From the IMG/VR virus record IMGVR_UViG_3300017613_000748: a stretch of DNA of 55,850 nt; one strand, given 5' to 3'. The DNA is from a virus. The position numbers were made by a program, and so were the translations under genes. The notes beneath the pieces were generated by a model. That model did no database searches, was not told the origin of the DNA, and was given only the letters and a program-made list of their open reading frames with translations. Below are positions 36,576 to 37,442 of the stretch, piece by piece; position 1 is the stretch's first letter, and the number at the start of each line of letters is the position of its first letter.

Positions 36576-37442
36576 ATGAACAGGAACAACCTTAGAACAG
36601 CAGTACGCGGAGCATACGATTTGCAAAAACTCAGGATCCAGATGGGCAACCGCATTGTTGGGAACTTCAAAGCCAAACTTGGCCAAGCCCCAAGCGATAA
36701 GGAAGAGAGCCTCGATGCGGAAGGAAAGGCCCTCCTCAAAAACCTGCGCATCCATTATACAAAAATAACGGATGGCATTAAGACGTTTCCACGCCAGAAG
36801 TCATTTAAAGGGGATGAGGTAATTTCCAATTATACAGAGCTGTGCTTGCTGGCTCAGTATGCTGATCTTGAAAGCAGCGAGACAACTCACTTTAAGCGAC
36901 TAACGCAGATTCTGCGAGAGTTTCCTATCTATACAGAGTTTCTGGTAGACGTTAAAGGTATTGGCCCCGCCATGGCAGGAGTGATTATTTCAGAGATTGA
37001 TATAACCCGAGCCGAATACCCATCTAGTCTATGGAAGTACGCCGGGCTTGATGTTGCTGCTAATGGCGCAGGCCGAAGCCGCAAAAAAGAACATCTTGTC
37101 GAAATCGAATATACCGACAAAGACGGAAAACCAGCCAAGCGAGCTGGAATCACGTTCAACCCCTGGCTAAAAACCAAACTAATTGGCGTGTTGGCCTCAT
37201 CCTTTTTGCGGGCTGGGGAAAATCCTTATCGCATAATCTATGATGATTACAAACATCGTCTTGAAAACCACCCCGCACATTTAGAAAAAACAAAAGGCCA
37301 TCGCCACAACATGGCTATGCGTTACATGATTAAGCGTTTTCTAGTGGATCTATACAACGCGTGGCGCCCACTTGAAGGATTAGAAGTGGCGCCAGAATAC
37401 TCGAAAGCCAAACTTGGCAAAACGCACAAGAAGGCTGCATAA
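36576..37442 (+). CDS. IS110/IS116/IS902-type Tnp (HhH) domain protein lacking the N-terminal DEDD/RuvC-like domain (288 aa)
   Basis: VKGIGPAMAGVIISEI...LWKYAGLD and the C-terminal AMRYMIKRFLVDLYNAW match the IS110 C-terminal module. There is no GID.../DEDD motif. AGGAG SD. Confidence 0.6.
   Translation: MNRNNLRTAVRGAYDLQKLRIQMGNRIVGNFKAKLGQAPSDKEESLDAEGKALLKNLRIHYTKITDGIKTFPRQKSFKGDEVISNYTELCLLAQYADLESSETTHFKRLTQILREFPIYTEFLVDVKGIGPAMAGVIISEIDITRAEYPSSLWKYAGLDVAANGAGRSRKKEHLVEIEYTDKDGKPAKRAGITFNPWLKTKLIGVLASSFLRAGENPYRIIYDDYKHRLENHPAHLEKTKGHRHNMAMRYMIKRFLVDLYNAWRPLEGLEVAPEYSKAKLGKTHKKAA

Follow-up and report, generated by a model that had tools for sequence, protein, structure and literature searches.

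A probable dual-repeat TIGR-TasA cassette in a 55.8-kb contig of an uncultivated tailed phage

The 55,850-nucleotide viral stretch IMGVR_UViG_3300017613_000748 from IMG/VR (referred to, at its full length, as the window) contains at 35918-37442 what is most probably (rough probability 0.85) a complete dual-repeat TIGR-TasA system of an uncultivated tailed phage. The locus consists of an array of 18 units (35918..36575, + strand), in which two short repeats alternate with spacers, and of the gene tasA (36576..37442, + strand), which codes for a TIGR-associated protein of 288 amino acids with a coiled-coil and a Nop-like domain and without a nuclease domain. That the pair is of the TIGR-TasA type is close to certain, on the basis of (i) the family to which the protein belongs, (ii) the anatomy of the array, (iii) the joint occurrence of gene and array in relatives and (iv) a pairing constraint on one of the two repeats. 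TIGR-Tas itself is already described, with solved structures and an NCBI annotation model, and the locus is an intact new example of its TasA subtype. The original prediction, made from the letters of the window alone, had taken the protein for the domesticated nucleic-acid-binding half of an IS110 recombinase paired with a repetitive ligand.

The protein, the array and their joint occurrence

The open reading frame (ORF) starts with ATG and its product is exactly the one quoted in the original prediction. It matched the NCBIfam equivalog model NF052498 (‘TIGR-Tas system RNA-guided endonuclease’) with E = 1.3e-37 and 129.9 bits against a cutoff of 100, the match covering residues 6-264 and all 215 profile positions, and PHROG 4285, a group labelled ‘transposase’, with E = 1.3e-41. 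When the single protein was searched against the sequences of the PDB, the best match was TasR of a member of the Thermoproteota (TaTasR, 9MTY; E = 1.9e-13), followed by TasH of Salicola phage CGphi29 (SpTasH, 9W03 and related entries; E = 5.1e-10); these were the only two distinct sequences to match, with one further marginal match (9M8O Gp18, E = 0.31). With a profile of a 65-sequence family the corresponding values were 4.8e-22 for TasR and 2.9e-13 for TasH. SpTasH was also recovered from the phage CGphi29 record by tblastn with TasA, and the two proteins share 29% identity in pairwise alignment of the Nop-like domain (E = 2e-17). With 2670 database proteins at E<=1e-5 the family is a large one, the best 120 being mostly about 280-300 amino acids long, with a few of up to 356. 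No match to the 34-40 kb part of the window was found among phage records by megablast, which indicates a phage without close relative among those deposited.

The same picture was obtained at the level of structure. An AlphaFold 2 model built from the 65-sequence alignment had a predicted local distance difference test score (pLDDT) of 88 and a predicted template modelling score (pTM) of 0.81; a single-sequence AlphaFold model (pLDDT 34) was unusable. Foldseek comparison of the former with the PDB returned TasH or TasR for all of the top 11 chains (E = 3.8e-9 to 1.1e-5, template modelling (TM) scores up to 0.60). The model begins with three long helices (residues 3-34, 48-65 and 86-113) and continues with a helical domain (residues 117-288). 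The helices make up a coiled-coil domain (residues 3-113; 36582..36914, + strand) for which a role in dimerisation is suggested by the structures of TasR and TasH (PMC12045711). The ‘coiled-coil-like’ segment noticed at first is therefore present, but the description fell short of what is a three-helix coiled-coil domain.

No trace of a nuclease was detected in or around the gene. PF01548 (DEDD_Tnp_IS110) had no match in the 288 amino acid protein in the Pfam search, an N-terminal HNH or RuvC domain was not found by Pfam, in the NF052498 alignment (which runs from residue 6) or in the model, and none of the flanking ORFs carries a DEDD, RuvC or transposase domain. All three + strand frames are closed across the upstream array, with 9-14 stops per frame. 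Because of these closed frames and of the lack of such a domain in the flanking ORFs, a nuclease half is not recoverable by frameshifting, and the early remark that the upstream frames are closed holds. Since the nuclease domain is absent, the protein falls in the TasA subtype in the nomenclature of Faure et al. (PMC12045711).

The array was delineated from its box pattern, a unit table, a period of 36 in Tandem Repeats Finder and autocorrelation at lag 36; 35918-36575 was the sole region of the 55.8-kb window to pass the lag-36 scan. The latter method was used in place of Tandem Repeats Finder, which caught only fragments of this array and nothing in Ralstonia phage phiRSL1 or CGphi29, since one half of every unit varies in such arrays. 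In a unit of 36 nt, the edge box (consensus AGCGAGCCA) comes first and is separated by spacer A from the loop box (consensus AGACAACCA), after which spacer B completes the unit. Under fuzzy box matching, edge and loop boxes alternate strictly every 18 nt from 35918 to 36575; 33 of the 36 spacers are 9 nt long and the other three 10 nt. Positions A1, G2, G4, C8 and A9 of the edge box and A1, G2, C4, C7 and C8 of the loop box are invariant in 18/18 units, and the spacer columns are variable. Written as AG-CGAG-CCA (edge) and AG-ACAA-CCA (loop), the boxes share an invariant G2 and C8; the interior of the loop box is A-rich, and the edge box has an extra C3-G6 pair, as described for TasR. The edge box with which the array starts (AGTGGGTCA), 8 nt past the stop of the preceding gene, is degenerate; the last one is truncated (AGCGAAC, 36569-36575) and abuts the ATG at 36576, so that the gene does follow the boxes directly, as had been noted.

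A dual-repeat TIGR array, as defined in the literature, alternates two repeats 8-12 nt long in units of 36 nt, of which there are usually 5-15 or more; the spacers measure 9 nt, the outermost edge repeats are truncated, and each repeat starts with xG (‘box D’) and ends with CCA (‘box C’) (PMC12045711). The array fits this definition in its period, spacer length and CCA box ends; of its two outermost edge boxes the last is truncated and the first degenerate. Which box is the edge and which the loop was decided from the TaTasR scaffold, from the AGCGAGCCA-type box with which the array both begins and ends, and from the CGphi29 array, identical in its two boxes and in their spacing. One refinement concerns spacer B: its position 9 is always a purine (A in 12 and G in 4 of the 16 nine-nt spacers), whereas the last base of spacer A is unconstrained. 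Given this fixed purine and the 8 nt reported for SpTasH, spacer B may effectively be 8 nt long and the edge repeat 10 nt. An Rfam search with the array gave no match at E<=1, including none to a box C/D family. On the minus strand, several ORFs of 68-145 amino acids run across the array (35866-36755) and encode repetitive peptides (…GCL.S.GSL…); these are repeat artefacts with a risk of being miscalled as genes, and ORF031-033 of phiRSL1 look like similar array-derived miscalls.

Array and gene were found together in relatives. A co-oriented array accompanies every full-length homologue with intact flanks, i.e. 21 viral loci, five loci from a collection of metagenome-assembled genomes (MAGs) and three phage records, and the supposed pairing of protein and repeats thereby passes the co-occurrence test in every informative locus. 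Among the 27 viral contigs with a relative, 21 have an array abutting the gene, with a period of 36 (39 or 40 in the most distant). The remaining six loci comprise one with the gene at the contig start, one with the gene cut by the contig end and four with a 67 amino acid N-terminal remnant. In the genome collection the array is present at five of six loci, and the sixth contig stops 24 nt past the gene; the MAG labels, which spread over several phyla, are probably binning artefacts. The three phage records are those of phiRSL1, CGphi29 and Microcystis phage Mvi-JY20. In the viral contigs the array is mostly downstream, being upstream in five, of which two have arrays on both sides; upstream arrays were found at six related loci. 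The CCA-ending boxes lie on the tas strand in every locus examined.

Two of these relatives deserve separate mention. In phiRSL1 (L001, NC_010811), ORF034 (2932-3969), labelled ‘transposase’, is a TasA homologue at 43% identity, and the 1.4-kb ‘empty’ stretch after it holds an unannotated degenerate TIGR array of about 1.2 kb (4010-5200) with boxes AGWCAYCC / AGYGNRYC at 18-nt spacing. In the most distant viral relative (L026, 2045-3823; 36% identity), which lies on a contig of 250 kb, the arrays are upstream and repeat every 39-40 nt instead of 36, pointing to longer spacers or repeats. The genes that flank the cassette in the window had no homologue beside tas in any of the related loci from viral contigs and phage records (L001-L030). 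Since no flanking genes are shared, gene and array behave as a self-contained cassette that moves between otherwise unrelated phage genomes. The statement that this is not an insertion sequence (IS) copy agrees with the lack of shared flanks around the cassette, no search for IS ends having been made. None of the array units is shared with 23 related arrays.

The four loci with the remnant (L027, 4001-4198; L028; L029, 3998-4201; L030) encode only a protein of 67 amino acids, 66-68% identical to TasA residues 4-69, i.e. to the first coiled-coil helices, with neither an array nor a Nop-like domain beside it. Decay could have left these proteins behind as remnants; it is also conceivable that they act against TasA as decoys of its dimerisation domain.

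Predicted guide RNAs and mode of action

If the locus works as the described TIGR systems do, the array would be transcribed rightward, probably together with tasA. A consensus scan of 31.5-38.5 kb found no sigma-70-like promoter and no + strand terminator, which weakly suggests that array and tasA are co-transcribed as part of the rightward gene block. The transcript would then be cut in the middle of the edge box (AGCG|AGCCA) by the loop that carries Y275 and H284; published processing is likewise mid-edge-repeat (PMC12045711). SpTasH processes its own precursor by means of Y289 and H296 in a C-terminal loop (PMC13421893), and a Y/H dyad is reported to be conserved across dual-repeat systems. 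By this comparison the Y275...H284 motif of TasA (Y-x3-KLG-x2-H; 37398..37427, + strand) is a candidate catalytic dyad for processing of the guide RNA precursor (pre-tigRNA). Y275, K279, L280 and H284 are invariant in 65/65 sequences (conservation was counted over sequences with identity down to 43%), all 37 family-invariant residues, Y275 and H284 included, are present in TasA, and Y275 aligns with Y289 of SpTasH.

The product would be a set of 18 guide RNAs (tigRNAs) of 36 nt each, with the organization 5'-AGCCA-spacerA-AGACAACCA-spacerB-AGCG-3'. With the register set by analogy to the TaTasR scaffold and to the published processing (PMC12045711), the predicted tigRNA 1 spans 35922..35957 (+ strand; 5'-GGTCA-TTTTTGCAT-AGACAACCA-GAAGTGCAG-AGCG-3') and the predicted tigRNA 18, from the last unit, 36537..36572 (+ strand; AGCCA-AGTTTGAGT-AGACACCCA-TACACCAGG-AGCG); the spacer B and 3' half-edge of the latter overlap the ribosome-binding site of tasA. 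The tigRNAs would guide a TasA dimer to DNA, each ribonucleoprotein reading an 18-bp site of which one strand corresponds to spacer A followed by the reverse complement of spacer B, so that each spacer would pair with a different strand. This geometry was chosen because the 3' overhangs reported for TasR fit no other; for unit 14 it predicts the 18-bp target ACGGAATCC-CGGTAGCCA. TasA would bind and bend the target without cutting it, and would thus keep DNA of the host or of a competitor element from being transcribed or replicated. FpTasA, a dual-repeat TasA, binds 36-nt RNAs (PMC12045711), and TasA has been reported to bind without cleavage and to repress transcription in a guide-dependent and reversible manner (bioRxiv 10.64898/2026.09.09.750476). 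By analogy with these systems, it is very probable that tigRNAs are produced and act as guides; binding without cleavage, expected because TasA has no nuclease domain, is reasonably likely as the effector mode.

Several observations weigh against this interpretation. Three units out of 18 measure 37 nt, and units 1 (in its edge box) and 16 (in its loop box) are degenerate and may be non-functional. A typical published array ends in a rho-independent terminator, whereas no terminator follows here and the array, located upstream, runs into the tasA start codon. Upstream arrays are a published variant. In the protein, the residue aligned with SpTasH H296 is K282, and H284 lies two residues past it. 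The TasA proteins with experimentally shown repression use stem-loop guides, not dual-repeat ones. As for targets, none of the 18 guides has a site with <=3 mismatches in the window, whichever of the two geometries is assumed, and sites with four mismatches number 8 and 11, as against about 6.5-6.9 per 18 pairs in a mispaired control (306 A/B combinations). Given the lack of near matches and 4-mismatch counts at the level of the control, self-regulation through perfect or near-perfect sites on the contig is unlikely. An exact search of the viral collection returned 0, 0 and 0 matches for three guides, and 0 and 2 for two mispaired controls.

Of the alternatives, the one that fares best accepts the TIGR-TasA identity and differs in what the ribonucleoproteins would do: they would recruit or position an activity in trans, namely the RecE/RecT-like module, an integrase (via a DNA bend of roughly 180 degrees) or a separate nuclease. 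The original TIGR-Tas paper floats the idea of an aid to integrases and calls the function of TasA unclear (PMC12045711), and the + strand block that contains tasA also holds exonuclease VIII-like and RecT-like genes (31999-34140), which form a recombination module upstream of the cassette, and a downstream DHH phosphoesterase gene (39086-39925). We nevertheless regard it as improbable. No flanking gene is conserved beside tasA in the 27 related viral loci, which makes an obligate partner of TasA unlikely; the sole HNH gene nearby (41787-42485, + strand) lies 4.3 kb from tasA, encodes an HNH_3 plus AP2-domain protein typical of free-standing homing endonucleases and is probably unrelated; and TasA alone suffices for guide-dependent repression in Escherichia coli (bioRxiv 10.64898/2026.09.09.750476).

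The junction between array and gene has a feature that may bear on regulation. To the Shine-Dalgarno (SD) sequence of tasA (AGGAG, 36566..36570, + strand), located 5 nt ahead of the ATG, spacer 18B contributes its final 3 nt and the terminal edge box its initial 2 nt. The predicted cut AGCG|A, its register again taken by analogy, falls between 36572 and 36573, i.e. between the SD and the start codon. If array and tasA are on one transcript, maturation of the last unit would cut tasA off from its ribosome-binding site and might thereby exert negative feedback on synthesis of the effector. An SD embedded in the array was considered as a general rule and rejected: L015 has a comparable junction, but the final edge box of L019 is upstream of the SD. 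The spacers, for their part, include three pairs of near-duplicates that are one base apart and of the same type and register (3A/8A, 4B/18B and 15B/17B). Shuffled spacers give 0.14 pairs with <=1 mismatch, against the three observed, and 0.05% of shuffles reach three (p about 5e-4), which suggests duplication or recombination of half-units during growth of the array. Spacers 7B/12B and 13A/17B share 7-mers. Taken jointly, feedback through the junction and array growth by half-units make a tentative proposal, to which we give a rather low chance.

Resemblance to IS110 and constraint on the edge repeat

The reading from which this work started, that of an IS110 recombinase half which has lost its DEDD domain, binds a repetitive DNA or RNA ligand and lies outside described systems, is very improbable, though part of what it was built on is real. 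Transposase_20 (PF02371) matches the protein above its gathering score (E = 1.3e-5; 25.9 bits against 21.3) and PF01548 does not, so that an IS110-type C-terminal module without DEDD is indeed present. The match is confined to the helix-hairpin-helix (HhH) part of the Nop-like domain (residues 123-172; 36942..37091, + strand), at profile positions 4-54 of 87, with the HhH motif itself at residues 123-139. The NCBIfam IS110 model NF033542 also aligns, to residues 5-173 and only from model position 122, Foldseek lists IS621 and ISCro4 with a probability of 1.00, and phiRSL1 ORF034 and PHROG 4285 bear the label ‘transposase’. However, the score of the IS110 model is 29.3 bits for a cutoff of 140, whereas the cutoff of the TIGR-Tas model is exceeded, and the family profile that finds TasR at 4.8e-22 in the PDB does not reach IS621 even at E<=10. 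The fold likewise ranks Tas proteins well above IS110: IS621 and ISCro4 come at E of about 3e-3 to 9e-2 with a TM score of about 0.38, and noise lies below. The proposed comparison of an AlphaFold model with IS621 thus does reveal a resemblance (E about 3e-3), but TasR and TasH are much closer, and a novel ‘domesticated recombinase half’ is replaced by a member of the described TIGR-Tas family.

The direction of descent is also the reverse in the published proposal, in which IS110 derives from an ancestral solo-Nop TasA through fusion to a DEDD domain (PMC12045711); this direction is taken from the literature only. The observation that the array occupies the position of the IS110 bridge RNA, which is held by the coiled-coil and Tnp domains, agrees with the structural relationship published for TIGR-Tas and IS110 (PMC12045711).

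A Gly/Ser/Arg stretch had been placed where the catalytic Ser motif of IS110 proteins normally lies. Its Ser168 is Ser in 54/65 sequences, Gly in 6, Cys in 3 and Arg in 2, and is aligned with Lys in TasR; as judged from this alignment it is no conserved nucleophile, and the placement does not stand. The insertion noted after the stretch is, on the other hand, real with respect to TasR and TasH. It is a clade-specific beta-hairpin (residues 173-196; 37092..37163, + strand), missing in TaTasR and SpTasH and seen as gaps in pairwise alignments, whose strands occupy residues 175-180 and 186-191 of the model (hairpin span 175-191). Over the 65 sequences Y179 and G184 are invariant, and H173, L174, N195 and P196 invariant or nearly so. 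Residues 161-166, the loop directly before the hairpin and part of the same Gly/Ser/Arg stretch, are an insertion hot-spot in relatives: L019 (4001-5044), L023 (3989-5180) and L025 (4001-5080) have in-frame insertions of 55-70 amino acids at the matching loop, and L023 has a second insertion near residue 215.

It could also be supposed that the array consists of iteron- or centromere-like DNA sites for an HhH protein, serving for example phage partition or replication control, and does not encode guides. HhH motifs commonly bind DNA, and ParB-like genes are occasionally found linked to TasA loci (PMC12045711). The edge repeat makes two base pairs in the TasR structure (PMC12045711). For the present analysis 283 edge boxes were collected from 22 loci with an extraction pattern that leaves the paired positions free. 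Positions 2-7 are paired in 97% of boxes (G-C 150, G-U 81, A-U 44, A-C 0) and positions 3-6 in 98% (C-G 233, U-A 34, U-G 10); the control pairings 2-6 and 3-7 are paired in 2%. Whole arrays have switched from one pair type to another (AGTGAACCA in L004; AACGAGTCA in L008, L010 and L034), and although units inside one array are not independent, each alternative pair occurs in at least four loci. The edge repeat is thus under a pairing constraint at the RNA level, and the two edge base pairs of the TasR structure covary in the TasA clade of the window. Compensatory changes at 2-7 and 3-6 that admit G-U wobbles are sensible only in RNA, which disfavours a pure DNA-binding-site model.

Three further points tell against DNA sites. 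The boxes keep the orientation of the tas strand in every locus, which DNA sites do not need; the SpTIGR array of CGphi29 has identical boxes, and its transcripts are processed and bound as 36-nt RNAs (PMC12045711, PMC13421893); and hypervariable spacers of fixed length have no role in iterons. A DNA-site array is accordingly hardly credible, and the ‘repetitive ligand’ of the original prediction is better described as a guide-RNA array, in view of its hypervariable spacers, the absence of any unit common with the 23 related arrays and the covariation at the RNA level. A decaying, non-functional TIGR-Tas remnant is just as hard to sustain: the degenerate first edge box and unit 16 loop box, the three 37-nt units, the lack of targets found and the 67 amino acid truncated tasA remnants in other phages would suit it, but the ORF is intact and of full length, has a good SD and keeps all 37 invariant residues of the family.

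Related systems, neighbouring genes and significance

With these alternatives set aside, the TIGR-TasA locus can be compared with the characterized systems. SpTIGR-TasH of Salicola phage CGphi29 (9W03, 9W04, 21KL) is likewise phage-encoded, with a dual-repeat array of period 36 and boxes identical to those here (AGCGAGCCA and AGACAACCA). SpTasH has a homologous Nop-like domain, provides top fold matches and shares a C-terminal Y...H processing motif with TasA. Unlike TasA, it possesses an N-terminal HNH nuclease and cuts DNA. Its array is downstream of the gene, whereas the array here is upstream and abuts the start codon; its spacer length is given as 8 nt, compared with the 9 nt that separate the boxes here; its processing His is at G+1 of the motif and not at G+3; and it lacks the extra hairpin of residues 173-196. 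TaTasR, the best sequence match in the PDB, has a guide scaffold (AGCCA-spA-UGAAACCCA-spB-UGCG) that is near-identical to the predicted tigRNAs (bioRxiv 10.64898/2026.07.15.738680), with an edge repeat UGCG|AGCCA and an A-rich loop repeat, as in the array of the window. TasR differs in being archaeal and in having an active N-terminal RuvC domain and UG as box D; the phage locus has no RuvC and AG as box D.

FpTasA, MbTasA and PlTasA are, like the protein described here, solo effectors with coiled-coil and Nop-like domains and without a nuclease. MbTasA and PlTasA bind DNA in a guide-dependent manner and MbTasA represses transcription, both with stem-loop guides, unlike the dual-repeat arrangement here; they are likened to it by description only. 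The clade to which the present TasA belongs is made up of proteins of roughly 285 amino acids with the hairpin insertion, mostly from uncultivated phages.

More remote systems share single features. IS110/IS621 elements have in common with the locus the RNA-binding module of coiled-coil and Nop-like/HhH domains and a non-coding RNA gene adjoining the protein gene; the locus lacks a DEDD/RuvC domain, a conserved catalytic Ser and a two-loop bridge RNA, and it would supply many short guides in place of one bridge RNA. Box C/D small nucleolar and small ribonucleoproteins (Nop5/Nop56/58) differ in several respects. TasA has no match to the Pfam Nop domain even at E<=10, the array has no kink-turn, the presumed target is DNA and not rRNA, and no fibrillarin or L7Ae partner was noted, no search for partner proteins having been made. 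CRISPR arrays likewise combine conserved repeats with variable guide segments beside an effector gene and are processed to unit length. TIGR differs from them in having two short repeats per unit, two 9-nt spacers that pair with opposite DNA strands, no Cas1/Cas2, no protospacer adjacent motif and no known mechanism of spacer acquisition.

In the neighbourhood, a gene for a CsrA-family RNA-binding regulator (37471-37662, + strand; Pfam CsrA E = 4.5e-24, PHROG 9500) begins 29 nt past tasA and has its own SD; this adjacency is conserved in no related locus. Further downstream, an ORF of 3778 amino acids (42670-54006, minus strand) has a RadC-like JAB domain at residues 2104-2219 and a weak match to an ADP-ribosyltransferase (ART-PolyVal), giving it the look of a giant ‘polyvalent’ phage protein. 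Its size had raised the possibility of an N4-like phage with an N4-type virion RNA polymerase, which was rejected on account of this RadC/JAB and ART domain content.

The relationship noticed at the start, an IS110-type RNA-binding module without nuclease beside an array, is the one behind the discovery of TIGR-Tas, published in 2025. In public phage records, tas genes still go under the names ‘transposase’ or ‘hypothetical’, and their arrays lack annotation or have spurious ORFs drawn across them, as in phiRSL1. The duplicated half-spacers, if truly such, bear on how TIGR arrays expand. The 55.8-kb phage contig offers a clean natural example of an intact dual-repeat TIGR-TasA cassette with 18 guides. 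As the cassette has exactly the boxes of the SpTasH system, which is tractable biochemically, yet its protein has no nuclease, it would be a convenient test case for the role of TasA in phages and for the origin of the spacers.

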